This document shows, piece after piece, positions 11,209-49,790 of a DNA stretch of 64,000 bases (within the stretch, counting starts at the first letter, position 1; the number at the start of each line of letters is the position of its first letter). The notes beneath the pieces were generated by a model, which saw only the letters and a program-made list of their open reading frames with translations, was not told where the DNA came from and ran no database searches. Made by a program: the position numbers and the translations under genes. The stretch lies in the NCBI RefSeq assembly GCF_055900595.2, contig NZ_CM148325.1; one strand, 5' to 3'.

Positions 11209-11234
11209 TGTCAGAATTTTATGAGGTATGACGA

Positions 11235-11705: not shown

Positions 11706-11722
11706 ATAACAGGGAGTATGTC

Positions 11723-12037: not shown

Positions 12038-12061
12038 TCCTTATACTGGAGGGATCTTAAT

Positions 12062-13153: not shown

Positions 13154-13164
13154 CCGGAGGCCCT

Positions 13165-14016: not shown

Positions 14017-14096
14017 TTCATTTTCTGTCATGGCCTTTATGCCAGTGCAATAACGCACCGGCAGGGCGGACTACACGCTGAAACTGGAGATTTAAC

Positions 14097-14957
14097 ATGT
14101 TAGTTTCGATGAAAGAATTACTGCAACCTACCCGCCAGCACGGCTTTGCCATTGGCGCATTTAATGTGGCGGATAACTGTTTCCTTCGCGCAGTCGTGGA
14201 TGAAGCAGAAGCGACAAATACTCCGGCGATTATTGCTATCCATCCCAGCGAACATGATTTTGTGGGCGATGCCTTTTTCGCTCACGTTCGCGAAATCACG
14301 CAGCGTAGTCCGGTGCCGTTTGTGCTGCACCTCGATCATGGCGCCTCTGTGGAGCACGTTTTGCGGGCGATTCGCTGTGGATTTACCTCGGTGATGATCG
14401 ACGGTTCGCTGCTGCCGTATGAAGAGAACGTGGCGCTGACCGCAGAAGTGGTTCGCCTGGCTCATGCGGTTGGCGTGTCGGTTGAGGGTGAGCTGGGGAC
14501 CATCGGACAAACAGGAACGTCAGTGGAAGGTGGAGTTTCACAAGTGACCTACACTGACCCGGCGCAAGCCGCCGATTTTATTGCTCGTACAGGGGCCGAC
14601 ACACTGGCGGTAGCGATTGGTACGGCACACGGCATCTATCCGAAAGGGATGCAGCCGAAGCTGCAAATGGACATTTTGCGCGACATTGCCGGGCGCATTG
14701 ATATTCCATTGGTGTTGCACGGTGGTTCGGCAAACCCGGACGCGGAGATTGCTGAATCCGTTACGCTCGGCGTTGGCAAAATCAATATCTCCAGCGATAT
14801 GAAATACGCCTATTTCCAGAAAGTGCGTGAAATTCTCGCTAAAGAGAGCTGGTGGGACCCGAACGTCATCTATCCGGATGCGATTAGCGCGGCGCGGGAA
14901 GTCATTCGCCACAAAATGAAACTGTTCGGTTCGCTCGGTAAAGCATCACTGTACTAA
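14097..14957 (+). CDS. class II ketose-bisphosphate aldolase (GatY/KbaY/FbaA family), paralogue 2
   Basis: 286 aa; motifs HLDHGAS, LVLHGGS, KINISSD typical of zinc-dependent class II aldolases. Confidence 0.8.
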   Translation: MLVSMKELLQPTRQHGFAIGAFNVADNCFLRAVVDEAEATNTPAIIAIHPSEHDFVGDAFFAHVREITQRSPVPFVLHLDHGASVEHVLRAIRCGFTSVMIDGSLLPYEENVALTAEVVRLAHAVGVSVEGELGTIGQTGTSVEGGVSQVTYTDPAQAADFIARTGADTLAVAIGTAHGIYPKGMQPKLQMDILRDIAGRIDIPLVLHGGSANPDAEIAESVTLGVGKINISSDMKYAYFQKVREILAKESWWDPNVIYPDAISAAREVIRHKMKLFGSLGKASLY

Positions 14958-15004
14958 GCCAGAAGGGCGGGGTGACCCGCCTTTTACGCAACAAGGAACG
15001 AGAT

Positions 15005-15937
15005 ATGCACTATCTGGGGTTGGATATTGGTGGGACCAAAATCGCCGCCGTCGTCATGGATGCGCATGGCTGGGAGATTCGCCGTTACCGCTGCCCGACG
15101 CAAAAGTCGACATATCAACAATTTGTCTCATGCGTTGTGGCGCTTATCGAGCAGATTAGGCGGGACGTTCAACGACCGATGCTGACAGGGATCGCCTTAC
15201 CCGGCAGTATCTCGCCACTCACTGGCCTGATTAAAAATGCGAATATTCAGGTGATTAACGGTCATGCGTTACAGGCTGATTTGCAGCAATTGCTTGGGCA
15301 ACCGGTGGTGATAGCCAATGATGGTAACTGTTTCGCGCTATCAGAAGCTTGCGACGGTGCCGGGCAAGATTATGATGTGGTATTTGGTATTACGCTTGGC
15401 ACTGGCTGCGGCGGTGGCATTGCCATCAAGCAACGACCGTTTATAGGGGCCTGGGGAAATGCTGCCGAATGCGGTCATATCACGTTGCCAGGCTATACGG
15501 AGCAGGAAGATGGTCCATCAGTCAGTTGCTATTGCGGCAAACACAACTGCGTGGAGTCGTTTGTTTCCGGCAGCGGTTTTAGTGAACGCTATCAACAGAT
15601 GACTGGTAACTTGCTCATTCCTGCGGCGATTGTCACCCTGGCACAACGTGGTGATGCTTGTGCCATGCAGCAGGTGGCACGTTTTCGCCAACAGCTTGCC
15701 CGCACGCTGGCAACCATCGTTAACGTTGTTGACCCTGGCGTGATTGTGATCGGCGGCGGGCTTTCGAATGTGGAACTGCTTATCACCGATCTGAACGCAG
15801 AAGTCGCTCCACTGGTTTTCACCGATCAATTCACCACTCCCATTGTAAAAGCGCAGCACGGCGACAGTAGCGGAATGCGTGGCGCTGCCTGGCTTGCTAT
15901 GCGCAACGGAGAAGCCAATGAAACGCTCACAAATTAA
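15005..15937 (+). CDS. ROK-family sugar kinase
   Basis: Start taken at MHYLGLDIGGTKI (ATP-binding DxGGT motif); Cys-rich zinc motif CYCGKHNC characteristic of ROK kinases. Confidence 0.75.
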   Translation: MHYLGLDIGGTKIAAVVMDAHGWEIRRYRCPTQKSTYQQFVSCVVALIEQIRRDVQRPMLTGIALPGSISPLTGLIKNANIQVINGHALQADLQQLLGQPVVIANDGNCFALSEACDGAGQDYDVVFGITLGTGCGGGIAIKQRPFIGAWGNAAECGHITLPGYTEQEDGPSVSCYCGKHNCVESFVSGSGFSERYQQMTGNLLIPAAIVTLAQRGDACAMQQVARFRQQLARTLATIVNVVDPGVIVIGGGLSNVELLITDLNAEVAPLVFTDQFTTPIVKAQHGDSSGMRGAAWLAMRNGEANETLTN

Positions 15938-16598
15938 TTATGTTATTGATAAAGCACATGCCATTGCGCAGACCTTCCGCGTTTGTTTGCCAGAGTTCGC
16001 CTATTTTACGGTGGATGACTGGCTGCAGCGGGAACGGGATAACTGGCAAGAAGTAGTCGACTTACAGCTCGGTTGGGATATCACCGATTTTGGTCGTGGT
16101 GATTTCAACCAAACGGGACTAACACTGCTAACGATGCGCAACGGCGCGCTGGGGTCGGCGGCATATCCAAAACCGTATGCTGAGAAAATGTTGCAGATCC
16201 AACAAGATCAGCAGACTCCCTGGCATTTTCACACCCACAAAATGGAAGATATCCTCAATCGGGGCGGTGGAGACTTATGCATGCAGTTGGCCTGGGCCAA
16301 CGAAGCCAATCTCTGTGATGATCAACGAGTCATTACCGTGAGTGTTGATGGTCAGCGGCGTACCATGAAACCTGGTGAAACGCTGGTGCTAAAGCCGGGG
16401 CAGGGCATTTGCCTGCCGCCGCGTCTGTATCATCGCTTCTGGGCGGAAAAAGCGTTTGTTCTCGGCTGGGAAATTTCGATGGTAAATGATGACCAACACG
16501 ATAATTATTTTCTTGAGCCGGGAGGACGTTTTCCGGCGATAGAAGAAGATGAACCGGTGAAATGGTTATTGTGCAGTGAGTATGGAATTTTGCGCTAA
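15918..16598 (+). CDS. cupin-superfamily sugar isomerase (D-lyxose/D-mannose isomerase-like)
   Basis: About 226 aa from MKRSQINYV; His-containing cupin motifs (WHFHTHKMEDI); overlaps the end of the kinase gene by about 20 nt, suggesting translational coupling. Confidence 0.6.
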   Translation: MKRSQINYVIDKAHAIAQTFRVCLPEFAYFTVDDWLQRERDNWQEVVDLQLGWDITDFGRGDFNQTGLTLLTMRNGALGSAAYPKPYAEKMLQIQQDQQTPWHFHTHKMEDILNRGGGDLCMQLAWANEANLCDDQRVITVSVDGQRRTMKPGETLVLKPGQGICLPPRLYHRFWAEKAFVLGWEISMVNDDQHDNYFLEPGGRFPAIEEDEPVKWLLCSEYGILR

Positions 16599-16607
16599 TA
16601 ACGGGGA

Positions 16608-16645
16608 ACGCTAGCGCTGATATCCGCTAGCGTCCTTATTTTTAC
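16608..16645 (+). terminator. rho-independent terminator of the frz operon
   Basis: Perfect 9-bp stem ACGCTAGCG / CGCTAGCGT with 8-nt loop followed by CCTTATTTTT. Confidence 0.5.
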
Positions 16646-20142: not shown

Positions 20143-21348
20143 ATGTTTCATCTCGATACTTTAGCAACGCTTGTTGCTGCAACGCTGACGTTGCTGCTCG
20201 GGCGTAAGTTGGTCCATTCCGTCTCCTTTTTGAAGAAATACACCATACCGGAACCTGTTGCGGGTGGTTTGTTGGTGGCGCTGGCGCTACTGGTACTGAA
20301 AAAAAGCATGGGCTGGGAAGTCAACTTTGATATGTCCCTGCGCGATCCGTTAATGCTGGCTTTCTTCGCCACCATTGGTTTGAACGCCAACCTTGCCAGT
20401 CTGCGTGCCGGTGGGCGCGTGGTTGGCATCTTCTTGATTGTGGTTGTTGGTCTGTTGGTGATGCAAAATGCCATTGGCATTGGTATGGCTAGCCTGTTAG
20501 GGCTTGATCCGCTGATGGGGCTGTTGGCCGGTTCTATTACGCTTTCCGGCGGTCACGGTACGGGCGCTGCGTGGAGTAAATTGTTCATTGAACGTTATGG
20601 CTTCACCAATGCGACGGAAGTGGCGATGGCCTGTGCAACGTTCGGTTTGGTGCTGGGCGGCTTGATTGGCGGTCCGGTGGCGCGCTATCTGGTGAAACAC
20701 TCCACCACACCGAACGGTATTCCGGATGACCAGGAAGTCCCGACGGCGTTCGAAAAGCCGGATGTGGGCCGCATGATCACCTCGCTGGTGCTGATTGAAA
20801 CTATCGCGCTGATTGCTATCTGCCTGACGGTGGGGAAAATTGTTGCGCAACTTTTGGCTGGCACTGCTTTTGAACTGCCGACCTTCGTCTGTGTACTGTT
20901 TGTTGGCGTGATTCTGAGCAACGGTCTGTCAATGATGGGCTTTTACCGCGTCTTTGAGCGTGCGGTATCCGTGCTTGGTAACGTAAGCCTGTCGTTGTTC
21001 CTGGCGATGGCGCTGATGGGGCTGAAACTATGGGAGCTGGCTTCGCTGGCGCTGCCGATGCTGGCGATTCTGGTGGTACAGACCATCTTCATGGCGTTGT
21101 ATGCCATTTTCGTCACCTGGCGCATGATGGGTAAAAACTACGATGCGGCAGTGCTGGCAGCGGGTCACTGTGGTTTTGGCCTTGGTGCAACGCCAACGGC
21201 AATCGCCAACATGCAGGCAATCACCGAACGTTTTGGCCCGTCGCACATGGCGTTCCTGGTCGTGCCGATGGTTGGTGCGTTCTTTATTGATATCGTTAAC
21301 GCGCTGGTGATTAAACTGTATTTGATGTTGCCGATTTTTGCGGGTTAA
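20143..21348 (+). CDS. gltS: sodium/glutamate symporter
   Basis: 401 aa, polytopic; GltS family; synteny with recG/xanP. Confidence 0.9.
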   Translation: MFHLDTLATLVAATLTLLLGRKLVHSVSFLKKYTIPEPVAGGLLVALALLVLKKSMGWEVNFDMSLRDPLMLAFFATIGLNANLASLRAGGRVVGIFLIVVVGLLVMQNAIGIGMASLLGLDPLMGLLAGSITLSGGHGTGAAWSKLFIERYGFTNATEVAMACATFGLVLGGLIGGPVARYLVKHSTTPNGIPDDQEVPTAFEKPDVGRMITSLVLIETIALIAICLTVGKIVAQLLAGTAFELPTFVCVLFVGVILSNGLSMMGFYRVFERAVSVLGNVSLSLFLAMALMGLKLWELASLALPMLAILVVQTIFMALYAIFVTWRMMGKNYDAAVLAAGHCGFGLGATPTAIANMQAITERFGPSHMAFLVVPMVGAFFIDIVNALVIKLYLMLPIFAG

Positions 21349-21457
21349 TTGATGAAGCGGCGGTATAAGTGCCGCCGCAACAAAGACAAATGTCTGATAT
21401 GCTTCGCTTATCAAGTCTGCGTATTGATTCACAATTTATTGAATTTGTAGTTTTTTT

Positions 21458-21493
21458 GTAGGACGGATAAGGCGTTCACGCCGCATCCGGCAG
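21458..21493. repeat. REP (repetitive extragenic palindromic) element
   Basis: GTAGGACGGATAAGGCGTTCACGCCGCATCCGGCAG matches the E. coli REP consensus; a short hairpin plus T-run immediately follows at about 21515-21538. Confidence 0.6.
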
Positions 21494-21536
21494 GAAGGTA
21501 GGGTAACCTGAAATGGCGGTTTCTCACCGCCGCCTT

Positions 21537-23618
21537 TTACGCATTTGAGTAACGTTCTGTTTCTGGCATCCAGCGTTCTATCAGGGCTTTTGCCTGCTGT
21601 GGGTAACGTTCGTGAATATGGCGTGCCAGGCGCTGAACTTCCGGGATCATCGCCTGATCGCGCAGCAAATCCGCCACTTTAAATTCAGCATTACCCGTCT
21701 GACGCGTGCCTAACAATTCGCCAGGGCCGCGAATCTCCAGATCTTTTTGTGCAATCACAAAACCGTCGTTACTGTCGCGTAGCACTTGCAGGCGGATTTG
21801 CGCGGTTTTGGAGAGCGGCGTTTTGTAGAGCAGCACACAGTGAGAAGCCACCGCGCCACGACCTACACGCCCACGTAGCTGGTGCAACTGCGCCAGACCC
21901 AGACGCTCCGGGTTTTCGATGATCATCAGGCTGGCGTTAGGCACATCAACGCCGACTTCAATAACGGTCGTGGCAACCAGCAGGTGTAACTCGCCTTGTT
22001 TAAATGATGCCATGACGGCCTGCTTCTCGGCTGGCTTCATCCGTCCGTGTACCAGGCCAATATTCAACTCTGGTAGCGCCAGTTTCAACTCTTCCCACGT
22101 GGCTTCTGCTGCCTGCGCTTCCAGTAACTCTGACTCTTCAATCAACGTACAAACCCAGTACGCCTGACGACCTTCAGTCATGCAGGCGTGGCGCACGCGG
22201 TCGATAATGTCGTTGCGGCGGGTATCCGGGATAGCCACCGTCGTCACAGGCGTACGACCTGGCGGTAACTCATCAATGACCGAGGTATCGAGATCGGCAT
22301 ATGCAGTCATTGCCAGCGTGCGGGGGATCGGCGTGGCGGTCATGATCAACTGATGCGGATGGAAGCCCTGCTGCTGGCCTTTCTCCCATAACGCCAGACG
22401 CTGATGCACGCCAAAACGATGCTGTTCGTCGATGATCACCAGCGCCAGGCCGTTAAACTGCACCTGTTCCTGGAAGATGGCGTGTGTACCGACAATCATC
22501 TGCACCTGACCGCTGGCGATGGCTTCCTGCTGTGCCAGTCGTGCTTTACCTTTCTGTTTACCGGCGAGCCAGCCCACTTCGATACCGAGCGGAGCAAACC
22601 AGTTACGGAAGTTATTGGCGTGCTGCTCGGCGAGTAATTCGGTTGGTGCCATCAATGCCACCTGTTTGCCGTGCGCAATAGCACGCAACGCGGCGAGGGC
22701 GGCGACCAGCGTTTTACCGGAACCTACATCGCCCTGCACCAGGCGCATCATCGGCACATCCAGCGCCATATCGCGCTCGATCTCCGCCACCACGCGTGCC
22801 TGTGCGCCCGTTGGCTTGAACGGTAAGGCTGCGAGGAGTTTATTTTTCAGCGCGTCATTGGCGCTCAGCGGCTGGGCATGAAAACGCTGTGCTCCGGCAC
22901 GTAAGGCTAACATGCTGAGGTTATGCGCCAGCAACTCTTCCAGAATCAGCCGGCGTTGTGCCGGATGCTGCCCGGTTTCGAGATCGCTAAGCTGTAGCGT
23001 CGGCGGCGGGCGGTGCAAAGTGCGCAACGCTTCCGGTAGCGTCATCATTCCTTGTGACAGTTCCGGCGGCAGGAGTTCTTCAATGGCGCAGGTGTCGAGC
23101 AGATCCAGCGCCTGGTCGGTTAATTTACGCAGCGTGGCCTGCTTTACGCCTTCCGTAGTTGGGTAAACCGGCGTTAGCGTTTCCTGCAACTCTGGCATAC
23201 TGAGATCGCCCTGCACGCGGTATTCCGGGTGGATCATCTCTGCACCGTATTTACCGCGCTTTGCTTCTCCATAGGCCAGCACACGGCGGCCCGTCGCCAG
23301 GCTATTTTTCATTGCCGCGTTGAAATTGAAAAAGCGCATGGTGAGAATGCCGGAACCGTCGCTGATCTGGCAGGTCATCATCCGCCGACCGCCGAAGGAG
23401 ATATTGCAATTCAGCACTTCGCCTTCCACCGTGGCGTAAACGCCCGGCAGTAGTTCACCGATGGGGTAGAGATGGGTGCGATCTTCGTAGCGCAGAGGAA
23501 GGTGTAAGAGTAAATCCTGCACGGTATGCAGATTGATTTTCGCCAGCTTATTACTTTGCGCCGCGCCAACGCCCGTTAGCGAACTGAGCGGAACAGCATC
23601 TAACAGGCGACCTTTCAT
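21537..23618 (-). CDS. recG: ATP-dependent DNA helicase RecG
   Basis: 693 aa from MKGRLLDAVPLSSL; helicase motifs GDVGSGKT and DEQH (LVIIDEQHRFG). Confidence 0.9.
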   Translation of the reverse strand: MKGRLLDAVPLSSLTGVGAAQSNKLAKINLHTVQDLLLHLPLRYEDRTHLYPIGELLPGVYATVEGEVLNCNISFGGRRMMTCQISDGSGILTMRFFNFNAAMKNSLATGRRVLAYGEAKRGKYGAEMIHPEYRVQGDLSMPELQETLTPVYPTTEGVKQATLRKLTDQALDLLDTCAIEELLPPELSQGMMTLPEALRTLHRPPPTLQLSDLETGQHPAQRRLILEELLAHNLSMLALRAGAQRFHAQPLSANDALKNKLLAALPFKPTGAQARVVAEIERDMALDVPMMRLVQGDVGSGKTLVAALAALRAIAHGKQVALMAPTELLAEQHANNFRNWFAPLGIEVGWLAGKQKGKARLAQQEAIASGQVQMIVGTHAIFQEQVQFNGLALVIIDEQHRFGVHQRLALWEKGQQQGFHPHQLIMTATPIPRTLAMTAYADLDTSVIDELPPGRTPVTTVAIPDTRRNDIIDRVRHACMTEGRQAYWVCTLIEESELLEAQAAEATWEELKLALPELNIGLVHGRMKPAEKQAVMASFKQGELHLLVATTVIEVGVDVPNASLMIIENPERLGLAQLHQLRGRVGRGAVASHCVLLYKTPLSKTAQIRLQVLRDSNDGFVIAQKDLEIRGPGELLGTRQTGNAEFKVADLLRDQAMIPEVQRLARHIHERYPQQAKALIERWMPETERYSNA

Positions 23619-27610: not shown

Positions 27611-29954
<2,344 letters not shown>

Positions 29955-30205
29955 GGTTCTCTCCCTAAAAATCTGTCTGGCAGGGTAGCGATTTGTGCGC
30001 ATTGTCACGATTGAGATTTTTTAAGGTGAGAGGGAATTGATAACTTGTAGTTATGTGAAATTGTTATTTTCTGTAGTGTGAATGCATTATTCTGATTTCG
30101 TGATAAGTAAAATGCATTAGAAAAAGTATGGAGTAATTAAACGTGAGGACGAAACTATATGCGTAGCGCCGCTGTAATTTACAACGGCCTACGGAGATAT
30201 GTTGT

Positions 30206-31069
30206 TTACTCAATATTCTGGATTTGCTCGCGCATCTGCTCGATCAACACTTTCAGCTCGATGGCAGAGTTTGTCACTTCGGCATTGATAGACTTCGAGG
30301 CCAGGGTGTTTGACTCGCGGTTGAACTCCTGCATCATAAAGTCCAGACGACGACCAACGGCTTCTTTTTTCTTCAGAATGTTGTAGGTCTCTTTAACATG
30401 CGCTTCGAGGCGGTCCAACTCTTCGGCAACGTCAATTCGTTGTGCCAGCAGAACCAACTCCTGCTCCAGACGGTTGTTCTCCAACTGAACCTGAGCATCT
30501 TCCAGCTTAGCGACCAGACGCTCACGCTGCCATTGCAGGATTTCCGGCATATGGGCGCGGACTTTGACCACTTCGGCGGTAACGCCTTCCAGACGCTGCT
30601 CGATCAATGCTTTCAGCGCCTGACCTTCGGTTTCGCGCGCGACGATAAAGTCATCCAGCGTACCATCCAGCGCCGCGAGAATTTCAGCAGCAATCGCGTC
30701 GAGATCCTGCTCCTGGGCTGCCATCACGCCTGGCCAACGGAGAATATCAACCGGGTTGATTTCCCCTTCGTCACTCTGCATTTTTACCCAGTTCGCGGCA
30801 GTTACCAGCTGTTTAGCCAGTTTTTCGTTGAGGATCAGCTCACCTTGTGCGCTGACATCTGGCTCATAGCGCAGGGTACATTCCACTTTACCACGCGTCA
30901 GGCGAGAACGAATACGCTCGCGAACGACAGGTTCAAGGCTACGGAACTGCTCCGGCAGACGAAAGTAAGTTTCCAGATAACGCTGGTTTACCGAGCGCAT
31001 TTCCCAGGTTGCGCTCCCCCATTCACCCTTGATTTCACGCCGGGCGTAGGCGGTCATACTGCGGATCAT
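30206..31069 (-). CDS. yicC: YicC-family stress-induced protein
   Basis: 287 aa; YicC N/C-terminal domain pattern; divergent from rph-pyrE. Confidence 0.85.
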   Translation of the reverse strand: MIRSMTAYARREIKGEWGSATWEMRSVNQRYLETYFRLPEQFRSLEPVVRERIRSRLTRGKVECTLRYEPDVSAQGELILNEKLAKQLVTAANWVKMQSDEGEINPVDILRWPGVMAAQEQDLDAIAAEILAALDGTLDDFIVARETEGQALKALIEQRLEGVTAEVVKVRAHMPEILQWQRERLVAKLEDAQVQLENNRLEQELVLLAQRIDVAEELDRLEAHVKETYNILKKKEAVGRRLDFMMQEFNRESNTLASKSINAEVTNSAIELKVLIEQMREQIQNIE

Positions 31070-31195
31070 AGACGTTCCTGTTTATAAAAGGAGAGGTGGA
31101 AGGATTATAGCCATCGATGCCTTGTCAGGATAGGAATAACCGCCGGAAGTCCGTATAATGCGCAGCCACATTTGTTTCAAGCCGGAGATTTCAAT

Positions 31196-31912
31196 ATGCG
31201 TCCAGCAGGCCGTAGCAATAATCAGGTGCGTCCCGTTACCCTGACTCGTAACTATACAAAACATGCAGAAGGCTCGGTGCTGGTCGAATTTGGCGATACC
31301 AAAGTGTTGTGTACCGCCTCTATTGAAGAAGGCGTGCCGCGCTTCCTGAAAGGTCAGGGCCAGGGCTGGATCACCGCAGAATACGGTATGCTGCCGCGTT
31401 CTACTCATACCCGTAATGCCCGTGAAGCGGCGAAGGGTAAGCAGGGCGGCCGCACGATGGAAATCCAGCGTCTGATCGCTCGTGCATTGCGCGCCGCAGT
31501 AGATTTGAAAGCCCTCGGTGAGTTTACTATTACGCTGGACTGCGACGTACTTCAGGCTGATGGCGGCACCCGCACTGCTTCTATCACCGGTGCTTGTGTT
31601 GCACTAGCCGATGCCCTGAATAAACTGGTTGAAAATGGCAAGCTGAAAACCAACCCGATGAAAGGGATGGTAGCCGCGGTTTCTGTCGGGATTGTGAACG
31701 GCGAAGCGGTTTGCGATCTGGAATACGTTGAAGACTCTGCCGCTGAAACGGACATGAACGTGGTGATGACCGAAGACGGGCGCATCATTGAAGTGCAGGG
31801 AACGGCGGAAGGCGAGCCGTTTACCCATGAAGAGCTACTCACCTTGTTGGCGCTGGCCCGAGGGGGAATCGAATCCATTGTAGCGACGCAGAAGGCGGCG
31901 CTGGCAAACTGA
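31196..31912 (+). CDS. rph: ribonuclease PH (apparently full-length, 238 aa)
   Basis: From [30 protein letters not shown]; reads through to a C-terminus ending ...ATQKAALAN just before the pyrE attenuator. Confidence 0.9.
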
Positions 31913-31919
31913 TTTTTAA

Positions 31920-31945
31920 GGCGACTGATGAGTCGCCTTTTTTTT
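31920..31945 (+). promoter_or_regulatory. pyrE attenuator (intrinsic terminator hairpin + U-tract between rph and pyrE)
   Basis: GGCGACTGATGAGTCGCC hairpin followed by TTTTTTTT, 30 nt upstream of the pyrE start. Confidence 0.65.
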
Positions 31946-31977
31946 GTCTGTAGAAAAGTAAGATGAGGAGCGAAGGC

Positions 31978-32619
31978 ATGAAACCATATCAGCGCCAGTT
32001 TATTGAATTTGCGCTTGGCAAGCAGGTATTAAAGTTTGGCGAGTTTACGCTGAAGTCCGGGCGCAAAAGCCCCTATTTCTTCAACGCCGGGCTGTTTAAT
32101 ACCGGGCGCGATCTGGCACTGTTAGGCCGTTTTTACGCTGAAGCGTTAGTGGATTCCGGCATTGAGTTCGATCTGCTGTTTGGCCCTGCTTACAAAGGGA
32201 TCCCGATTGCCACCACAACTGCCGTGGCGCTGGCGGAGCATCATGACCTGGACCTGCCGTACTGCTTTAACCGCAAAGAAGCAAAAGACCACGGTGAAGG
32301 CGGCAATCTGGTTGGTAGCGCGTTACAAGGACGCGTAATGCTGGTGGATGATGTGATCACCGCCGGAACGGCGATTCGCGAGTCGATGGAAATTATTCAG
32401 GCCAATGGCGCGACGCTTGCTGGTGTATTGATTTCGCTCGATCGTCAGGAGCGTGGTCGCGGCGAGATTTCGGCAATTCAGGAAGTTGAGCGTGATTACA
32501 ACTGCAAAGTGATCTCTATCATCACCCTGAAAGACCTGATTGCTTATCTTGAAGAGAAGCCGGAAATGGCGGAACATCTGGCGGCGGTTAAGGCCTATCG
32601 CGAAGAGTTCGGCGTTTAA
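31978..32619 (+). CDS. pyrE: orotate phosphoribosyltransferase
   Basis: 213 aa from [13 protein letters not shown]; PRPP-binding motif [13 protein letters not shown]. Confidence 0.9.
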
Positions 32620-32690
32620 AAATATGCGCTGCGCAGGTTTTTACTGTGCGCAGCGTGATGCGGTTTAAGATATCGTGTTAATCTGCTTTC

Positions 32691-32883
32691 GCCAGCAGTG
32701 GCAATAGCGTTTCCGGCCTTTTGTGCCGGGAGGGTCGGCGAGTCGCCGACTTAACGCCAGTAGTTTGTCCAGATACCCAAAGTCGCTCCATTGTACTTAA
32801 GTACGCTTCGCGTACGTCGCGCTGACGCGCTCAGTACAGTTACGCGCCTTCGGGATAGTTTGAGGGTATTGCCGCTGTTGGTG
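32691..32883 (+). ncRNA. retron msr-msd region (template/primer RNA for msDNA), bounded by a1/a2 inverted repeats
   Basis: a1 GCCAGCAGTGGCAATAGC (32691-32708) pairs with a2 GGTATTGCCGCTGTTGGT (about 32865-32882) at 17/18 positions when G-U pairs are allowed; internal palindromes (GTACGC-TTC-GCGTAC) fit an msd stem; lies immediately 5' of the RT gene. Confidence 0.6.
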
Positions 32884-32915
32884 CCTCTTTTGGTCGCCGT
32901 GATGTGGAGAGTGGA

Positions 32916-33875
32916 ATGGATGCTACCCGGATAACCCTTCTGGCGCTTGATTTGTTCGGCTCGCCGGGCTGGAGCGCCGATAAAGAAATACAGCGGCTGT
33001 ATGCGCTCAGTAATCATGCCGCACGCCATTACCGACGGATTATTCTTTCTAAGCGTCACGGCGGTCAGCGGGTGGTGTTAGCCCCTGATTACTTGCTCAA
33101 AACCGTACAGCGCAACATTCTTAAGAACGTCCTTTCACAATTCCCTCTTTCCCCTTTTGCTACCGCCTACCGACAGGGTCGCCCAATCGTCAGCAACGCG
33201 CAGCCTCACTGCCAACAGCCGCAGATCCTTAAACTCGATATCGAAAACTTTTTCGATAGCATTAGCTGGTTACAGGTCTGGCGTGTGTTTAGCCAGACCC
33301 AGTTGCCACGCAATGTGGTAACCATGCTGACCTGGCTTTGTTGCTATAACGACGCGTTACCGCAGGGGGCGCCAACTTCGCCTGCCATTTCCAATCTTGT
33401 GATGCGCCGTTTTGATGAGTGCATAGGGGAATGGTGTCAGGCTCGGGGAATTACCTACACCCGCTACTGCGATGACATGACCTTTTCTGGTCACTTCAAT
33501 GCCCGCCAGGTTAAAAATAAAGTATGCGGATTGTTAGCGGAGCTGGGCCTGAGCCTCAATCAACGCAAAAGTTGCCTGATAGCTGCCTGTAAGCGCCAGC
33601 AGGTAACCGGGATTGTTGTTAATCACAAGCCACAGCTTGCCCGTGAAGCGCGCCGGGCGCTGCGTCAGGAAGTACACTTGTGCCAAAAATATGGCGTTAT
33701 TTCGCATCTTAGTCATCGTGGTGAACTTGATCCTTCTGGCGATCTCCACGCACAGGCAACGGCGTATCTTTATGCTTTGCAGGGAAGAATAAACTGGTTA
33801 TTGCAAATCAATCCTGAGGATGAGGCCTTTAAACAGGCGAGGGTGAGTGTAAAGCGAATGCTGGTGGCATGGTAA
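32916..33875 (+). CDS. retron-type reverse transcriptase (Ec107-like, 319 aa)
   Basis: RT motifs LPQGAPTSPAISNL and YTRYCDDMTF (YxDD catalytic box) plus retron-specific VTG motif (QQVTGIVVNHKP); 319 aa if started at MDATRITL; located between pyrE and slmA. Confidence 0.85.
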   Translation: MDATRITLLALDLFGSPGWSADKEIQRLYALSNHAARHYRRIILSKRHGGQRVVLAPDYLLKTVQRNILKNVLSQFPLSPFATAYRQGRPIVSNAQPHCQQPQILKLDIENFFDSISWLQVWRVFSQTQLPRNVVTMLTWLCCYNDALPQGAPTSPAISNLVMRRFDECIGEWCQARGITYTRYCDDMTFSGHFNARQVKNKVCGLLAELGLSLNQRKSCLIAACKRQQVTGIVVNHKPQLAREARRALRQEVHLCQKYGVISHLSHRGELDPSGDLHAQATAYLYALQGRINWLLQINPEDEAFKQARVSVKRMLVAW

Positions 33876-33918
33876 GAAAAGCGTCAGGCAGACGTTTCTG
33901 CCTGAACGTTTGGGAGAA

Positions 33919-40468: not shown

Positions 40469-40819
40469 AGTAAATAGCTGACTTATGGATGTGCTGGGGA
40501 TTCTATGTATTTAGCTGTGGCTTTACCATTACTTTTCCCGTTTTTGACTTAAATAGCAATTTACCCACCAATTCTTGCTGAACATCTATACTTTTTTTGT
40601 ATTTTTATGCGATTCATTGATTTCCGCAGTACGTGCAGTAAGGAATCGCGGAGCAACAGTGAAAGAATATTGTTGCTAATGATTTTATTTGATTGATTTC
40701 TTTATTGAAAAACAACGATGTGCTTAAAAATCATTCGGATCGGATTGCCGCGAAAGAAGTGATACACTAGCGCGTCAATATCAGTACGGTATCAGTATTC
40801 AGGTAGCTGTTGAGCCTGG

Positions 40820-40831
40820 GGCGGTAGCGTG
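40820..40831 (+). promoter_or_regulatory. ops element (GGCGGTAGCGTG) within a JUMPStart-like leader upstream of waaQ; RfaH recruitment site
   Basis: Exact ops core GGCGGTAG-CGTG on the non-template strand about 50 nt upstream of the waaQ start. Confidence 0.7.
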
Positions 40832-40880
40832 CTTTTTCTGCTTCACCTTAATCGGATAATCTCAACAAAAAGAGTTACTT

Positions 40881-41939
40881 GTGGATAAGCCATTTCGAAG
40901 AATTTTGCTCATTAAGATGCGTTTTCATGGGGATATGTTATTAACTACTCCTGTCATTAGTTCGCTGAAAAAAAATTACCCTGACGCAAAAATCGATGTG
41001 CTGCTTTATCAGGATACCATCCCGATTCTGTCTGAAAATCCAGAGATTAACGCGCTCTACGGCATAAAAAATAAAAAAGCAAAAGCCTCAGAGAAAATTT
41101 CCAACTTTTTTCATCTCATCAAGGTATTACGTGCCAATAAGTATGACCTTATCGTCAATCTTACCGATCAATGGATGGTTGCTATACTGGTTCGCTTATT
41201 AAATGCCCGTGTGAAAATTTCCCAGGATTATCATCATCGGCAGTCTGCTTTTTGGCGTAAAAGCTTCACCCATCTGGTGCCGTTGCAGGGTGGAAATGTG
41301 GTGGAAAGTAACTTATCCGTGCTGACGCCACTGGGTCTCGAATCGTTGGTGAAGCAGACAACGATGAGTTACCCGCCTGCAAGCTGGAAACGAATGCGTC
41401 GCGAACTGGATCACGCAGGTGTTGGACAAAATTATGTGGTTATCCAACCTACCGCGCGGCAAATCTTCAAATGCTGGGACAACGCCAAGTTTTCCGCTGT
41501 GATTGATGCCTTACATACACGTGGCTATGAAGTCGTTCTGACGTCCGGCCCGGATAAAGACGATCTGGCCTGCGTCAATGAAATTGCGCAGGGATGCCAG
41601 ACGCCACCAGTAACGGCGTTGGCCGGAAAGGTAACCTTCCCGGAACTTGGTGCGTTAATCGATCATGCGCAGCTGTTTATTGGCGTTGATTCCGCACCGG
41701 CGCACATTGCCGCTGCAGTTAATACGCCGCTGATATCGCTGTTTGGTGCAACAGACCATATTTTCTGGCGTCCCTGGTCAAATAACATGATTCAATTCTG
41801 GGCGGGAGATTACCGGGAAATGCCAACACGCGATCAGCGTGACCGAAATGAGATGTATCTTTCGGTTATTCCGGCGGCAGATGTCATTGCTGCTGTTGAT
41901 AAATTATTGCCATCCTCCACGACAGGTACGTCGTTATGA
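40881..41939 (+). CDS. waaQ: LPS heptosyltransferase III (GT9)
   Basis: GT9 heptosyltransferase; first gene of the central waa operon; start uncertain (GTG at 40881 or ATG at MRFHGD). Confidence 0.85.
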   Translation: MDKPFRRILLIKMRFHGDMLLTTPVISSLKKNYPDAKIDVLLYQDTIPILSENPEINALYGIKNKKAKASEKISNFFHLIKVLRANKYDLIVNLTDQWMVAILVRLLNARVKISQDYHHRQSAFWRKSFTHLVPLQGGNVVESNLSVLTPLGLESLVKQTTMSYPPASWKRMRRELDHAGVGQNYVVIQPTARQIFKCWDNAKFSAVIDALHTRGYEVVLTSGPDKDDLACVNEIAQGCQTPPVTALAGKVTFPELGALIDHAQLFIGVDSAPAHIAAAVNTPLISLFGATDHIFWRPWSNNMIQFWAGDYREMPTRDQRDRNEMYLSVIPAADVIAAVDKLLPSSTTGTSL

Positions 41940-43060
41940 TCGTTGCTTTCTGTTTATATAAATATTTTCCCTTTGGCGGTTTGCAACGCGATTTTATGCG
42001 TATTGCTCAGACAGTTGCGGCCCGAGGGCATCATGTTCGGGTTTATGCCCAGTCATGGGAAGGCGAATGCCCTGATGTGTTTGAACTGATCAACGTGCCG
42101 GTTAAGTCGCATACCAATCACGGGCGTAACGCGGAGTATTTTGCCTGGGTGCAAAAACATTTACGCGAGCATCCGGTCGATAAAGTCGTTGGATTCAACA
42201 AAATGCCGGGGCTGGACGTTTATTATGCCGCTGATGTTTGTTATGCCGAGAAAGTGGCGCAGGAGAAAGGCTTTTTCTATCGCCTGACGTCACGTTATCG
42301 CCATTATGCCGCCTTTGAGCGGGCAACCTTTGAACAGGGCAAGCCGACACAGTTGCTGATGCTGACGGACAAGCAAATCGCCGATTTCCAGAAACATTAT
42401 CAGACTGAAGCGGAGCGTTTTCATATTTTGCCTCCGGGGATTTATCCTGACCGTAAATATAGCCAGCAGCCAGCCAATAGCCGTGAAAGCTTTCGTAAGA
42501 AAAATGGAATAACAGAACAACAATATTTATTGTTGCAGGTCGGTTCAGACTTCACGCGTAAAGGTGTCGATCGTTCCATTGAAGCACTTGCTTCGCTCCC
42601 GGATTCACTGCGCCACAACACATTGCTATATGTTGTTGGGCAGGATAAACCGCGAAAATTTGAGGCACTGGCAGAAAAACGCGGCGTGCGCAGTAATGTT
42701 CACTTCTTCTCTGGGCGTAACGATGTCTCGGAATTAATGGCGGCGGCGGATTTATTACTGCATCCTGCCTACCAGGAAGCGGCGGGAATTGTGCTGCTGG
42801 AAGCGATTACTGCAGGATTACCGGTTCTAACAACTGCTGTTTGTGGTTATGCGCATTATATTGTTGACGCGAATTGCGGCGTGGCTATTGCTGAGCCATT
42901 CCGTCAGGAAACATTGAATGAGTTTTTACGCAAAGCGTTAACGCAATCTTCATTGCGCCAGGCCTGGGCGGAAAATGCGCGACATTATGCTGATACACAA
43001 GATTTATACAGTCTGCCAGAGAAAGCGGCGGATATCATAACGGGTGGTCTGGATGGTTGA
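41936..43060 (+). CDS. waaG: LPS core alpha-1,3-glucosyltransferase I (GT4)
   Basis: 374 aa; GT4 family; ATGA overlap with waaQ stop. Confidence 0.9.
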
Positions 43061-43850
43061 ACTGAAAGAGCCGTTTGCCACGTTATGGCGCGGTAAAGAT
43101 CCTTTTGAGGAAGTTAAAACCTTGCAGGGTGAGGTATTTCGTGAACTGGAAACTCGCCGCACTCTGCGCTTTGAAATGGCGGGCAAAAGCTATTTTCTCA
43201 AATGGCATCGCGGCACGACCCTGAAAGAGATAATCAAAAATTTACTCTCATTGCGGATGCCAGTATTAGGTGCAGACCGTGAATGGAATGCGATTCATCG
43301 GCTGCGGGATGTCGGCGTTGATACTATGTATGGGGTGGCATTCGGCGAAAAAGGCATTAATCCGCTGACCAGAACTTCGTTTATTATTACCGAAGATCTG
43401 ACGCCAACTATCAGTCTGGAAGATTACTGTGCTGACTGGGCGACTAACCCACCAGATGTCCGCGTAAAGCGTATGCTTATTAAACGTGTCGCGACGATGG
43501 TGCGCGATATGCATGCTGCGGGCATTAACCACCGTGACTGTTATATCTGTCATTTCCTGCTGCACTTGCCTTTTTCTGGTAGGGAAGATGAGTTAAAAAT
43601 TTCAGTAATTGACCTGCACCGGGCGCAGCTTCGCACGCGCGTTCCACGTCGTTGGCGCGATAAAGATCTTATTGGGCTTTATTTTTCTTCGATGAATATT
43701 GGCCTGACTCAGCGTGATATCTGGCGATTTATGAAGGTATATTTTGCCGTACCGCTTAAAGACATACTCAAGCAGGAACAAGGGCTGCTGTCGCAAGCAG
43801 AAGCAAAAGCCACGAAAATCAGGGAAAGAACGATTAGAAAATCGTTGTAA
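43053..43850 (+). CDS. waaP: LPS core heptose(I) kinase
   Basis: 265 aa from [12 protein letters not shown]; kinase-like motif ([11 protein letters not shown]). Confidence 0.9.
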
Positions 43851-43865
43851 TTTCCGGAGAGAAAT

Positions 43866-44882
43866 ATGAGTGCCCACTATTTTAATCCACAAGAGATGAT
43901 CAATAAGACAATCATCTTCGATGAAAGGCCAGAGGCGTCAGTGGCATCATCATTCCATGTTGCTTATGGCATTGATCAGAACTTTCTTTTTGGTTGTGGT
44001 GTTTCAATCACGTCAGTTTTGTTACATAACAACGACGTGAGTTTTGTCTTCCACGTTTTTATTGATGATATCCCTGACGCCGATATCCAGCGTTTATCCC
44101 AATTGGCGAAAAGCTATCATACCTGTATCCAGATCCATCTGGTAAATTGTGAACGGCTTAAGGTATTACCGACGACCAAAAATTGGTCTATTGCCATGTA
44201 TTTCCGTTTTGTAATTGCAGATTACTTTATTGATCAACAAGATAAGATCCTGTACCTGGATGCTGATATCGCCTGTCAGGGAACCTTAAAACCGCTGATA
44301 ACAATGGATCTTGCCAATAACGTTGCTGCTGTTGTTACTGAACGCGATGCTAACTGGTGGTCGTTACGGGCTCAAAGTCTGCAGTGTAATGAACTTGAAA
44401 AGGGTTACTTTAATTCAGGTGTCCTGTTAATTAATACACTAGCGTGGGCGCAGGAGTCCGTTTCTGCTAAAGCGATGTCGATGCTTGCTGATAAAGCCGT
44501 CGTTTCCCGTTTAACCTATATGGATCAAGATATACTAAATCTTATCCTGTTAGGGAAAGTTAAATTCATTGATGCTAAATACAATACGCAATTTAGTTTA
44601 AATTATGAATTAAAAAAATCATTTATTTGTCCAATTAATGATGAAACCGTATTAATTCATTATGTCGGCCCGACAAAACCTTGGCATTACTGGGCCGGTT
44701 ATCCAAGCGCGCAGCCATTTATCAAAGCCAAAGAAGCATCGCCATGGAAAAATGAACCGTTAATGCGGCCAATTAACTCAAATTATGCTCGTTATTGCGC
44801 TAAGCATAATTTTAAACAAAATAAACCAATTAACGGGATAATGAATTATATTTATTATTTTTATTTAAAGATAATAAAATGA
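43866..44882 (+). CDS. waaO: LPS outer-core alpha-glycosyltransferase, GT8 family (WaaO/WaaI-like)
   Basis: 338 aa; GT8 DxD motif YLDADIACQG; AT-rich. Confidence 0.7.
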   Translation: MSAHYFNPQEMINKTIIFDERPEASVASSFHVAYGIDQNFLFGCGVSITSVLLHNNDVSFVFHVFIDDIPDADIQRLSQLAKSYHTCIQIHLVNCERLKVLPTTKNWSIAMYFRFVIADYFIDQQDKILYLDADIACQGTLKPLITMDLANNVAAVVTERDANWWSLRAQSLQCNELEKGYFNSGVLLINTLAWAQESVSAKAMSMLADKAVVSRLTYMDQDILNLILLGKVKFIDAKYNTQFSLNYELKKSFICPINDETVLIHYVGPTKPWHYWAGYPSAQPFIKAKEASPWKNEPLMRPINSNYARYCAKHNFKQNKPINGIMNYIYYFYLKIIK

Positions 44883-44898
44883 CATTGAGAAAAGTTAA

Positions 44899-45894
44899 AT
44901 GAATGAATTTATAAAAGAACGGTTTTCGTATTTAGCAGATAATAAAAAAGAAAACGTCCCAGAGCTAAATGTTTCCTACGGTATCGATAAGAATTTTTTG
45001 TATGGTGCTGGCGTTTCAATTTCTTCCGTTTTGATTAATAATTCAGATATTAATTTTGTCTTTCATGTTTTCACTGATTATGTGGATGATGATTATTTAA
45101 AGTCATTTGATGAAACAGCAAAACAATTTAATACCTCAATTATTGTATATTTAATTGACCCAAAATACTTTGCTGATCTGCCGACGTCACAGTTTTGGTC
45201 GTACGCGACATACTTCAGGGTATTGTCCTTTGAATATCTGAGTGAAAGTATTTCCACACTGCTGTATCTGGATGCCGATGTCGTTTGTAAAGGAAGTCTG
45301 AAACCTCTCACAAAAATTATATTTAAAGATGAGTTTGCTGCGGTTATTCCTGACAATGATAGTACTCAGGCGGCATGTGCAAAACGTCTTAACATTCCCG
45401 AAATGAATGGACGTTATTTCAATGCAGGCGTTATCTATGTCAATCTTAAAAAATGGCATGAAGCAAATTTGACACCGTATTTACTCACGCTTTTACGAGG
45501 GGAAACTAAATATGGCTCTCTTAAATATTTAGATCAGGATGCGTTGAATATCGCATTTAATATGAATAATATCTACCTCGCGAAGGATTTTGATACTATT
45601 TATACCCTGAAAAACGAACTTCATGATCGTAGTCATCGAAAGTATCAGCAAACCATTACCGATAAAACAGTATTGATTCACTATACAGGGATAACTAAAC
45701 CATGGCATAGCTGGGCTGGATATCCGTCTGCATCATACTTTAATATCGCGCGTGAACAATCTCCCTGGAAGAAATATCCTCTTAAAGAGGCGCGGACTGT
45801 TGCAGAAATGCAGAAACAATATAAGCATCTGTTTGCCCATGGTGAGTATATAAAAGGCATAACTTCATTAATTAAGTACAAGCTTAAGAAATAA
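44899..45894 (+). CDS. LPS outer-core alpha-glycosyltransferase, GT8 family (WaaT-like position)
   Basis: 331 aa; GT8 motif YLDADVVCKG; position between waaO and waaY as in R1/R4 core loci. Confidence 0.6.
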   Translation: MNEFIKERFSYLADNKKENVPELNVSYGIDKNFLYGAGVSISSVLINNSDINFVFHVFTDYVDDDYLKSFDETAKQFNTSIIVYLIDPKYFADLPTSQFWSYATYFRVLSFEYLSESISTLLYLDADVVCKGSLKPLTKIIFKDEFAAVIPDNDSTQAACAKRLNIPEMNGRYFNAGVIYVNLKKWHEANLTPYLLTLLRGETKYGSLKYLDQDALNIAFNMNNIYLAKDFDTIYTLKNELHDRSHRKYQQTITDKTVLIHYTGITKPWHSWAGYPSASYFNIAREQSPWKKYPLKEARTVAEMQKQYKHLFAHGEYIKGITSLIKYKLKK

Positions 45895-45903
45895 ATTACT
45901 CTT

Positions 45904-46596
45904 ATGATTACAAGTATACGTTATCGCGGCTTCTCATTTTATTACAAAGATAATGATAATAAATATAAAGAAATCTTTGATGAAATACTGGCCTATAATT
46001 TTAAAACAGTAAAAGTATTACGTAATATTGATGATACCAAAGTATCGTTGATTGATACGAAATATGGTCGCTATGTTTTTAAAGTCTTTGCTCCGAAAAC
46101 GAAAAGGAATGAACGTTTTTTAAAATCTTTTGTAAAAGGTGACTACTATCAGAATTTGATCGTTGAAACCGATCGTGTCAGAAGTGCAGGTCTTACTTTT
46201 CCTAATGATTTTTATTTTCTGGCTGAGCGTAAAATTTTCAACTATGCCAGTGTTTTTATCATGCTTATCGAGTATGTCGAGGGCGTAGAGCTCAATGATA
46301 TGCCGATTATTCCAGAAAATGTTAAAGCAGAAATTAAGGCTTCAATGGAAAAATTGCATGCCTTAAATATGCTATCGGGCGACCCACACCGGGGTAACTT
46401 TATCGTTAGTAAAGATGGTGTCAGGATAATTGACCTATCCGGTAAAAGCTGTACGGCAGAGCGTAAAGCTCGTGATCGTCTGGCCATGGAACGTCACCTG
46501 GGTATTGCCAACGAAATAAAAGATTATGGCTACTATTCAGTAATCTACAGAACCAAACTACGCAAATTTATTAAAAAATTAAAAGGCAAAGCGTAA
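45904..46596 (+). CDS. waaY: LPS core heptose(II) kinase
   Basis: 230 aa; small kinase-like protein with DPHRGNF motif. Confidence 0.75.
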   Translation: MITSIRYRGFSFYYKDNDNKYKEIFDEILAYNFKTVKVLRNIDDTKVSLIDTKYGRYVFKVFAPKTKRNERFLKSFVKGDYYQNLIVETDRVRSAGLTFPNDFYFLAERKIFNYASVFIMLIEYVEGVELNDMPIIPENVKAEIKASMEKLHALNMLSGDPHRGNFIVSKDGVRIIDLSGKSCTAERKARDRLAMERHLGIANEIKDYGYYSVIYRTKLRKFIKKLKGKA

Positions 46597-46621
46597 ACCA
46601 CACAGTCAAAACGGAACCAAC

Positions 46622-47650
46622 ATGGATTTATTAGCTGAGAGTATTACTGAAGTCGCTGTCTCTGGGGAAATTGCTAACACCGATCGTGTGTTAAATATCG
46701 CTTACGGTATTGACCGTAATTTTTTATTTGGTGCGGCAGTATCTATGCAATCAGTTGTTATGCATAACCCAGACCTTGCGGTTAAGTTTCATCTCTTTAC
46801 CGACTACATTGATGAAGATTATCTACAACGTGTTAACGCTTTTACCAGCAAAAATGCTAACGTTGAAGTAAGAATTTATAAAGTCTCCAGTGTCTTTATT
46901 GATATCTTCCCCAGCCTGAAACAGTGGTCTTATGCAACATTCTTCCGTTTAGTTGCGTTCCAGTATCTGAGTGAAACTATTGAAAATCTGTTATATATCG
47001 ATGCTGATGTCATCTGTAAAGGCTCATTAGCTGGATTGCTTGATATTAATTTTGATGGCGATAAATTCGCAGCTGTTATTAAAGATGTGCCTTTTATGCA
47101 GGAAAAACCAGCGAAGCGTCTGGCTATAGAGGGGCTTCCAGGGAATTATTTCAACGCCGGTGTAGTATATCTGCAGCTTGAAGCGTGGGCGAAAAATGAT
47201 TTTATGAATAAAGCCATTGCTATGCTGGCAAGTGACCCGCAGCACACGAAGTATAAATGCCTTGATCAGGATATTTTAAATATTCTGTTCTTTGGTCATT
47301 GTATTTTTATTAGCGGCGATTATGATTGCTTTTATGGCATTGACTATGAGTTAAAAAATAAAAGCGATGAAGATTATAAAAAGACCATTACCGATGATAC
47401 TAAGCTGATTCATTATGTTGGCGTAACGAAGCCCTGGAACGACTGGACGAATTATCCCTGCCAGAAGTATTTTAATGAGGCTTATCAAGCTTCTTGCTGG
47501 AATGATGTGGCGTTTATTCCAGCCACGAATGAAAAACAGTATCAAGTGAAATCCAGACATTTGAAAAGAAATGGTAATATTGCATCTTCATTTTACTATT
47601 TCATGCTCTATTATAGTAAGAAAATAGCGCGTAAGCATTTTTCCAAATAA
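46622..47650 (+). CDS. LPS outer-core alpha-glycosyltransferase, GT8 family (WaaW-like position)
   Basis: 342 aa; GT8 motif YIDADVICKG. Confidence 0.6.
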   Translation: MDLLAESITEVAVSGEIANTDRVLNIAYGIDRNFLFGAAVSMQSVVMHNPDLAVKFHLFTDYIDEDYLQRVNAFTSKNANVEVRIYKVSSVFIDIFPSLKQWSYATFFRLVAFQYLSETIENLLYIDADVICKGSLAGLLDINFDGDKFAAVIKDVPFMQEKPAKRLAIEGLPGNYFNAGVVYLQLEAWAKNDFMNKAIAMLASDPQHTKYKCLDQDILNILFFGHCIFISGDYDCFYGIDYELKNKSDEDYKKTITDDTKLIHYVGVTKPWNDWTNYPCQKYFNEAYQASCWNDVAFIPATNEKQYQVKSRHLKRNGNIASSFYYFMLYYSKKIARKHFSK

Positions 47651-47681
47651 TTATTAAGACTAATCATCCAGGGATTTTTTA

Positions 47682-48455
47682 ATGAACTTGCCCATTTATA
47701 TTGTCTCACTTAAAAGAGATATTGAGCGAAGAAATAAAATAAATGATGTCTTTCATCGATTAAACATTAATTTTGATTTTTTTGATGCCATAGATGCTAA
47801 AGATCCTCAAAATAAAGAAATTATTAATGAAATGAGATTAAGTGGTGTCGGCGCAGAAATGACTGATGGAGAAATTGCTTGTACGTTAAGTCATCAGCTT
47901 ATATATCAGGATATGATAGATAAAAATATAGAATGGGCAGTCATTCTAGAGGACGATGTTATCGTCAATGAGAAATTTAAAAATTTCCTTCAATACTTTA
48001 ATCCTTCTGAAAAAGACAAGTTAAAATATAATAATTTGTATTTGCTTGGAGGTCAGAAAGGATTACATGATTATCCAGTATTGGGGCAAAGCCTTTTTAG
48101 TAAAGTTAAGGTAAGTACTTGTATTTTTCGTCGTGTTAATTTTAATAAAAATAAAATTCGTCGTACATGTTCATATTTGATGAATAACGATATGGCACTA
48201 AAGTTGCTCAAATTGACAAAGGATTATGGCACCTATCGAGCTGATAGCTGGAAGTTAATGCATCAACATAATATTATAAAAGATTTTTATTTAGACGAAA
48301 TAATATTACATCCTATTTTAAATGAGTTTAATAGTCACCTTGAAAGTGAAAGGCTTTTAATATCGGAAAAAAAACAACCCAGGACAAGGCTTCAGAAAAA
48401 AATGAAGTTTATACGTTCCTGGATAAAGGTGGCTTTTTTTTCTCTTTTGAAATGA
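47682..48455 (+). CDS. LPS outer-core beta-glycosyltransferase, GT25 family (WaaV/WaaX-like)
   Basis: 257 aa; GT25 (Lic2A/LgtB-like) N-terminal pattern IYIVSLKRDIERRNKI...FFDAID. Confidence 0.55.
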   Translation: MNLPIYIVSLKRDIERRNKINDVFHRLNINFDFFDAIDAKDPQNKEIINEMRLSGVGAEMTDGEIACTLSHQLIYQDMIDKNIEWAVILEDDVIVNEKFKNFLQYFNPSEKDKLKYNNLYLLGGQKGLHDYPVLGQSLFSKVKVSTCIFRRVNFNKNKIRRTCSYLMNNDMALKLLKLTKDYGTYRADSWKLMHQHNIIKDFYLDEIILHPILNEFNSHLESERLLISEKKQPRTRLQKKMKFIRSWIKVAFFSLLK

Positions 48456-48489
48456 GATTGTTAATTTCAATTTATTGTGAGATATTAAC

Positions 48490-49743: not shown

Positions 49744-49790
49744 TAAAAACGTTGATTAAGTAAGTGGGTATAATGCCCACTTACTATTTA

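Follow-up and report, generated by a model that had tools for sequence, protein, structure and literature searches.

The rph–pyrE locus described here is very probably an ordinary wild-type rph–pyrE operon with a translation-coupled pyrE attenuator, and its rph allele is not rph-1. The locus lies on contig NZ_CM148325.1 of NCBI RefSeq assembly GCF_055900595.2, of which we analysed a stretch of 64,000 nucleotides, referred to as the window in the following. It shares with the wild-type operon of E. coli the gene order yicC / rph / attenuator / pyrE, an RNase PH of 238 aa, an intact run of five G (G5) and an rph stop codon 7 nt before the hairpin, and neither the hairpin and U8 tract nor the pyrE leader and its Shine-Dalgarno sequence differ from K-12. 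In contrast to the common E. coli allele, rph nt 186–657 are about 12% divergent in the window and introduce three amino-acid changes, and unlike the K-12 operon, the locus features a retron 3' of pyrE instead of a 36-bp spacer. The operon comprises the following elements:

31154–31159, + strand: candidate −10 hexamer TATAAT of a putative rph–pyrE operon promoter (sequence read directly)
31184–31187, + strand: probable rph Shine-Dalgarno sequence GGAG, 8 nt 5' of the ATG (sequence read directly)
31196–31912, + strand: rph, intact RNase PH gene, 238 aa plus TGA (open reading frame, translation, profile matches)
31381–31852, + strand: rare divergent mosaic rph haplotype, rph nt 186–657 (alignment with K-12 rph+)
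31862–31866, + strand: G5 run in the wild-type state, site of the one-base deletion of K-12 rph-1 (alignments, genome counts)
31881–31883, + strand: out-of-frame TAG, a stop in the rph-1 allele only and unused here (MG1655 translation mapped on the alignment)
31918–31945, + strand: pyrE attenuator, with hairpin 31918–31939 and U8 31938–31945 (terminator scan, fold, identity with MG1655)
31965–31970, + strand: probable pyrE Shine-Dalgarno sequence GAGGAG, 7 nt 5' of the ATG (sequence read directly)
31978–32619, + strand: pyrE, orotate phosphoribosyltransferase, 213 aa (TIGR00336; RefSeq annotation of a strain with an identical stretch)

Results

From the open reading frames and their translation, rph could be placed between an ATG at 31196–31198 and a TGA at 31910–31912, corresponding to 239 codons and a product of 238 aa. 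The first-pass annotation had described a frame running uninterrupted to a stop just 5' of the hairpin and T8, giving a 238-aa RNase PH, and this description holds in all its coordinates. Upstream of the gene, the block 31006–31205 shows 0 differences to MG1655, and a consensus scan called no complete promoter at 31154–31159. The rph product matches the NCBIfam equivalog model TIGR01966 at 380.9 bits (cut-off 141.5), with residues 2–236 spanning profile positions 1–235 of 236, and contains PF01138 (107.1 bits) and PF03725 (58.3 bits), both above their gathering scores. Residues 3–238 of the P. aeruginosa RNase PH 1R6L align with rph residues 2–237 (E = 4.7e-104); the alignment thus extends through residue 238 of 1R6L and includes an intact C-terminus, the portion missing in rph-1, where residues 217–238 are identical to K-12 rph+. 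A DGGTRT motif, which we take from RNase PH structures to be the phosphate-binding motif, is located at residues 122–127 and is the same in 1R6L. The full-length likeness to the solved structures 1R6L/1R6M, 1OYP and 1UDN, from P. aeruginosa, B. subtilis and A. aeolicus, respectively, marks the window rph as an ordinary orthologue; we know of no E. coli structure among the PDB entries matched by the rph product. At the DNA level, rph of NZ_CP098223.1 (protein WP_001247087.1) is 100% identical to the window gene, and WP_001247087.1 is the RefSeq protein accession of rph in six strains compared. rph encodes a complete RNase PH, whose activity should be normal according to what is established for this enzyme, a phosphorolytic 3' exoribonuclease that takes part in tRNA 3'-end trimming. 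Antisense open reading frames of 108, 108, 74 and 46 aa within rph were treated as chance occurrences in a conserved gene.

Between the ATG codons of rph and pyrE, the window and MG1655 (NC_000913.3) align with a single gap at rph nt 667–671, where the window reads GGGGG and MG1655 reads GGGG; the rph-1 deletion is a feature of MG1655 that the window lacks. As a consequence of its G4 run, MG1655 rph translates to 228 aa with the end ...ARGESNPL* and is annotated as 'truncated RNase PH'. The TAG terminating this product precedes the normal stop by 29 nt and is separated from the core stem of the attenuator hairpin by 36 nt, compared to 7 nt for the stop used in the window. Relative to K-12 rph-1, as carried by MG1655, W3110, W1485 and EMG2, the locus is therefore the same, with the first 185 nt of rph and the final 125 nt before pyrE (rph 3' end, attenuator and leader) identical except for one G, while the window differs in having G5 instead of G4, 238 instead of 228 aa and a stop at 7 instead of 36 nt from the stem.

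The earlier statement that a frameshift near the rph 3' end truncates the protein in K-12 MG1655 is borne out by the G4 run and the 228-aa product, and the literature agrees on low pyrE expression. For MG1655, W3110 and EMG2, the rph-1 frameshift is held responsible for low pyrE expression and pyrimidine starvation (PMC9997739; PMC2784333), with rph-1 both truncating RNase PH and lowering pyrE expression (PMC9997739). W1485, however, which had been proposed alongside MG1655 for comparison, is not valid as a wild-type comparator, since it carries rph-1 itself (PMC5379014). A usable reference is rph of ER1709, a K-12-background rph+ strain with the MG1655 sequence but with G5. Its protein aligns with that of the window without gaps over 238 codons and is identical at 235/238 positions, leaving V138A, Q142N and I216T as the only protein differences of the window rph from K-12 rph+, at positions that are not conserved in the P. 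aeruginosa enzyme 1R6L either. Because this alignment is gapless, the last ~30 codons are free of insertions and deletions when compared to wild-type rph; an indel there had been named in the first-pass annotation as the observation that would contradict an intact gene.

The core hairpin GGCGACTGATGAGTCGCC (GGCGACU-GAUG-AGUCGCC) is located at 31920–31937 and followed by T8 at 31938–31945. In the terminator scan, two flanking A–U pairs extend the stem to 9 bp, AAGGCGACU-GAUG-AGUCGCCUU, at 31918–31939. Between the rph TGA, ending at 31912, and the core stem, starting at 31920, lie the 7 nt TTTTTAA. Folding of 41 nt yielded −15.8 kcal/mol, compared to −4.8 ± 1.8 kcal/mol for shuffled sequences (z = −6.0), with 0/200 shuffles being as stable. 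By itself, the generic terminator scan showed no enrichment, with 3 sites found vs 2.5 expected, and the attenuator has no Rfam match at gathering thresholds, where JUMPstart (40793–40831) and tRNA-Sec are the only matches in the window. The rph–pyrE spacer comprises 65 nt, with 31977 as the last base before the pyrE ATG (31978). The pyrE product matches TIGR00336 at 238.9 bits (cut-off 106.8), and its start agrees with that annotated by RefSeq in strain Z0117EC0005, whose sequence matches the window exactly from the first base of rph up to the base preceding pyrE. Profile matches identify yicC as the upstream divergent gene and pyrE as the downstream gene.

Nine other taxa sampled, namely E. 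albertii, two divergent Escherichia, two Salmonella subspecies, Phytobacter, two Yersinia species and Enterobacterales CwR94, have retained the core stem GGCGAC...GUCGCC together with a U-run of 6–8. Among these, no more than about 10 nt separate the rph stop from the stem wherever it is directly readable, and the hairpin loop and the remaining spacer vary while the core stem stays. Since the stem never varies among the taxa sampled and within the hairpin only the loop does, covariation cannot be assessed and lends no support to the hairpin in this set. Conservation of the attenuator from Escherichia to Yersinia nevertheless supports its putative function.

To assign the state of the G run throughout the species, 5,426 complete E. 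coli genomes were searched by megablast with 50- and 51-nt queries, designed so that any 28-nt seed includes the G run. Of these genomes, 5,250 (about 97%) contain the G5 context and 170 the G4 context. Almost all of the latter (167 of 170) match the K-12 sequence exactly, and the exact-match strains listed all look like K-12 laboratory derivatives (MG1655, BW25113, J53 and similar). The remaining three G4 genomes have flank mismatches; one of them, 2015C-3101, has non-K-12 flanks and is annotated as frameshifted. By blastn, the 78-nt stretch 31900–31977 falls into the band of at least 99% identity in 4,567/5,424 genomes, where a full-length match is an identical one, a few partial matches are counted too and T7 is not told from T9; most genomes outside this band have one change in the 78 nt. 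From these counts, an intact rph with the standard attenuator is the rule in the species. The U-tract of the attenuator is T7 in ER1709 and T9 in R32_14_1F, and homopolymer variants of the G run and of the U-tract may represent slippage events or assembly errors.

Within rph, the window differs from K-12 rph+ at 55 positions, all of which are located in the 472 nt of rph nt 186–657 (~12%), while nt 1–185 and nt 658–717 show zero differences (Fisher test for clustering over the 717-nt CDS, p = 6e-11). Across the syntenic regions of the window, less than 1% of equally long segments are as divergent from MG1655 as this patch. Third codon positions hold 51/55 of the differences, and 49 codon changes are synonymous compared to 3 non-synonymous ones. 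This excess of synonymous changes points to purifying selection on the protein, so that the divergent patch leaves the assignment as a wild-type operon unchanged. The window rph is ~93% identical to rph of 5,388/5,424 genomes, whereas 36 of the 5,424 exceed 95% identity and 8 are identical to it. Sub-segments of the haplotype are present in other strains (2013C-4282, E2348/69, E7-1N7 and 95-3322), and the patch bears the signature of a deeply diverged allele broken up by recombination.

We further scanned GTDB species representatives with a degenerate protein pattern (15 letters), which returned 10 loci; the pattern demands A138 and N142, so that lineages with other residues at these positions are left out. 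No exact donor of the segment was present among these 10 loci. Nearest among the loci scanned were 'E. coli SCPM-O-B-8794' with 25/472 differences and Escherichia sp. E1V33, whose rph segment is itself mosaic, with 35/472, compared to 49/472 for E. albertii and 55/472 for K-12. Import of rph nt 186–657 from a non-coli Escherichia lineage is a conceivable origin.

Sequence context of the operon

The pyrE–slmA interval comprises 1,299 bp in the window vs 36 bp in MG1655, and the K-12 palindrome is absent. A retron of the Retron-Eco5 (Ec107) type replaces the pyrE–slmA (ttk) spacer at window positions 32620–33918, with the following components:

32692–32881, + strand: candidate retron non-coding RNA, ~190 nt bounded by inverted repeats
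32904–33875, + strand: open reading frame of the retron reverse transcriptase, annotated start equivalent to 32916, 319 aa

The candidate RNA is bounded by 15-nt a2/a1-like inverted repeats at 32692–32706 and 32867–32881, which are 87% complementary and located 5' of the reverse transcriptase (RT), and has no Rfam match at gathering thresholds. The RT reading frame contains RYCDDMTF with the catalytic YCDD box and is matched by PF00078 at 76.6 bits; its best NCBIfam retron model is retron_St85_RT at 229.1 bits, just below the cut-off of 235. As judged from the published description, Retron-Eco5 (Ec107) occupies the same site between pyrE and slmA, where it likewise replaces the short palindromic spacer, and its RT has the same YCDD box, as reported for RT-Eco5 (PMC6868368). 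The inverted repeats and the ~190 nt that they bound may correspond to the a1/a2 repeats and the msr-msd RNA of such a retron. Related retron sequence was found in 381/5,426 genomes, always single and chromosomal. The variant in the window is 95.4% identical to that of most carriers and reaches at least 99% identity in only nine genomes. Joint arrival of the rph patch and the retron was rejected as the whole story: 2013C-4282, E7-1N7 and 95-3322 have parts of the patch without the retron, and NZ_CP053785.1 combines the common retron variant with the common rph allele (92.8% identity).

A 9-bp GC-rich hairpin (CGCTGCGCA ... TGCGCAGCG) is located at 32627–32655, just 3' of the pyrE stop. Since no U-run follows it, transcripts of pyrE may be terminated only incompletely before the retron RNA.

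Further away from the operon, the window lacks dinD, which MG1655 carries between yicC and yicG, at about 30009–30205. The neighbours of the missing site are:

29337–30008, − strand: yicG
30206–31069, − strand: yicC

dinD is also missing in Z0117EC0005, 2013C-4282, R32_14_1F and 95-3322, is present in E7-1N7 and is a pseudogene in C9. Between yicI and yicH, the window contains a 7.2-kb insertion relative to MG1655 (9383–16638), which encodes a PRD/Mga-type regulator, PTS EIIA and EIIC, two class-II aldolases, a ROK kinase and a D-lyxose isomerase and resembles an accessory island for sugar utilisation. In the waa (LPS core) region, the window differs from K-12 by 20–30% at 40500–43746 and shows no alignment to K-12 at 43746–49834, which suggests a core type different from K-12. 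Background identity of the window to MG1655 is ~96% and patchy, with further divergence peaks at about 1083–1800, 21100–21600 and 27838–28038. Within E. coli, the strain is thus distant from K-12.

Discussion

The geometry of the locus fits the model of translation-coupled attenuation. A UTP-sensitive, translation-coupled pyrE attenuator is said to have been described for rph+ E. coli by Bonekamp et al. in 1984 and by Jensen in 1993. Transcription starting 5' of rph would reach pyrE only on readthrough of the intrinsic terminator in the 65-nt spacer. A ribosome following close behind the polymerase at the end of rph would cover the 5' arm and thereby prevent hairpin formation, so that transcription could proceed into pyrE, while with a lagging ribosome the hairpin would form and transcription would stop before pyrE. 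In the established model, low UTP would slow down the polymerase and tighten the coupling, leading to more pyrE. The ribosome footprint is generally known to reach past the stop codon, and a ribosome whose A site is occupied by the TGA would shield ~12–15 nt past this codon, corresponding to the stem base and the first bases of the 5' arm. With the rph stop only 7 nt before the core stem, occlusion of the 5' arm by a closely following ribosome would thus be expected in the window, whereas in K-12 rph-1 the ribosome would halt 29 nt early, out of reach of the hairpin, leaving pyrE under-expressed. Since not a single base of the attenuator or the pyrE leader differs from MG1655, normal translation-coupled attenuation of pyrE is a reasonable inference for this strain; from established knowledge of the system, occlusion by the ribosome, sensing of UTP, enzyme activity and pyrE expression at a normal level would be predicted here. 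In accordance with this model, correct pyrE regulation has been reported to require the rph stop codon near the attenuator loop (PMC2784333), and MG1655 grown in minimal medium repeatedly gains an 82-bp deletion or a true reversion at this site (PMC2784333; PMC5933015), with the adaptive deletions shifting the rph stop back toward the attenuator (PMC5933015; PMC2784333).

It could be argued that the full-length rph is functionally altered, with the divergent middle third and V138A, Q142N and I216T changing activity, translation speed or coupling. The clustering of all 55 differences in rph nt 186–657 and the rarity of the allele, exact in only 8 genomes and above 95% identity in 36, are in line with such a view, and the 49 synonymous codon changes could conceivably shift the local translation rate. 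We nevertheless regard it as quite improbable: the ratio of 49 synonymous to 3 non-synonymous changes indicates strong purifying selection, the three substituted positions vary between E. coli and P. aeruginosa, one RefSeq protein accession is common to several unrelated strains including E2348/69, and the last 20 codons as well as the attenuator are identical to K-12. For the hairpin itself, the strong canonical intrinsic terminator in the 65-nt spacer would equally be compatible with a plain rph terminator, in which case pyrE would have a promoter of its own and it would not matter where the rph stop is located. Taking the available space into account, this is very unlikely, since the scan detected no promoter-like site in the ~32 nt between hairpin and pyrE. 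In MG1655, moreover, moving the rph stop alters pyrE expression and growth, and deletions restoring stop proximity recur (PMC2784333; PMC5933015), and the rph stop stays beside the hairpin across genera.

Homopolymer length is a further point to consider, since G and T runs do vary between assemblies, as in 2015C-3101 (G4), ER1709 (T7) and R32_14_1F (T9), and an intact frame could in principle arise as an assembly artefact masking a true G4 sequence. With the G5 context in 5,250/5,426 genomes and eight independent assemblies 100% identical to the window across all 782 nt, such an error is extremely unlikely. We therefore retain the assignment of the locus as a wild-type operon with a translation-coupled attenuator.

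The retron raises the additional question whether an Ec107-type element might be functionally tied to the rph–pyrE unit. As there is no strong terminator between pyrE and the retron RNA, readthrough of the attenuator at low UTP could drive the retron, and PyrE, being a phosphoribosyltransferase, might replace the PRTase-like partner of related retron RTs. Mestre et al. 2020 point out the position of the retron next to pyrE and the linkage of its closest RT relatives to PRTase-like proteins, and leave the meaning of the pyrE–retron adjacency open (PMC7736814). We consider a functional tie of this kind a distinctly unlikely scenario; if true, the intact rph stop would matter for retron expression too.

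Conclusions

An intact rph with a standard pyrE attenuator is the norm in E. coli and already-known biology, to which the K-12 frameshift is the exception. The strain is spared a defect specific to one laboratory lineage and, with rph-1 being absent, pyrimidine limitation of the MG1655 type is therefore not expected. The mosaic rph haplotype and the divergent allele of the Ec107-type retron are small additions to known patterns of recombination and accessory genes in E. coli, and neither of them alters the verdict on the rph–pyrE locus. For annotation and comparison, it follows that MG1655 and W1485, rather than natural isolates, are the aberrant references at rph.
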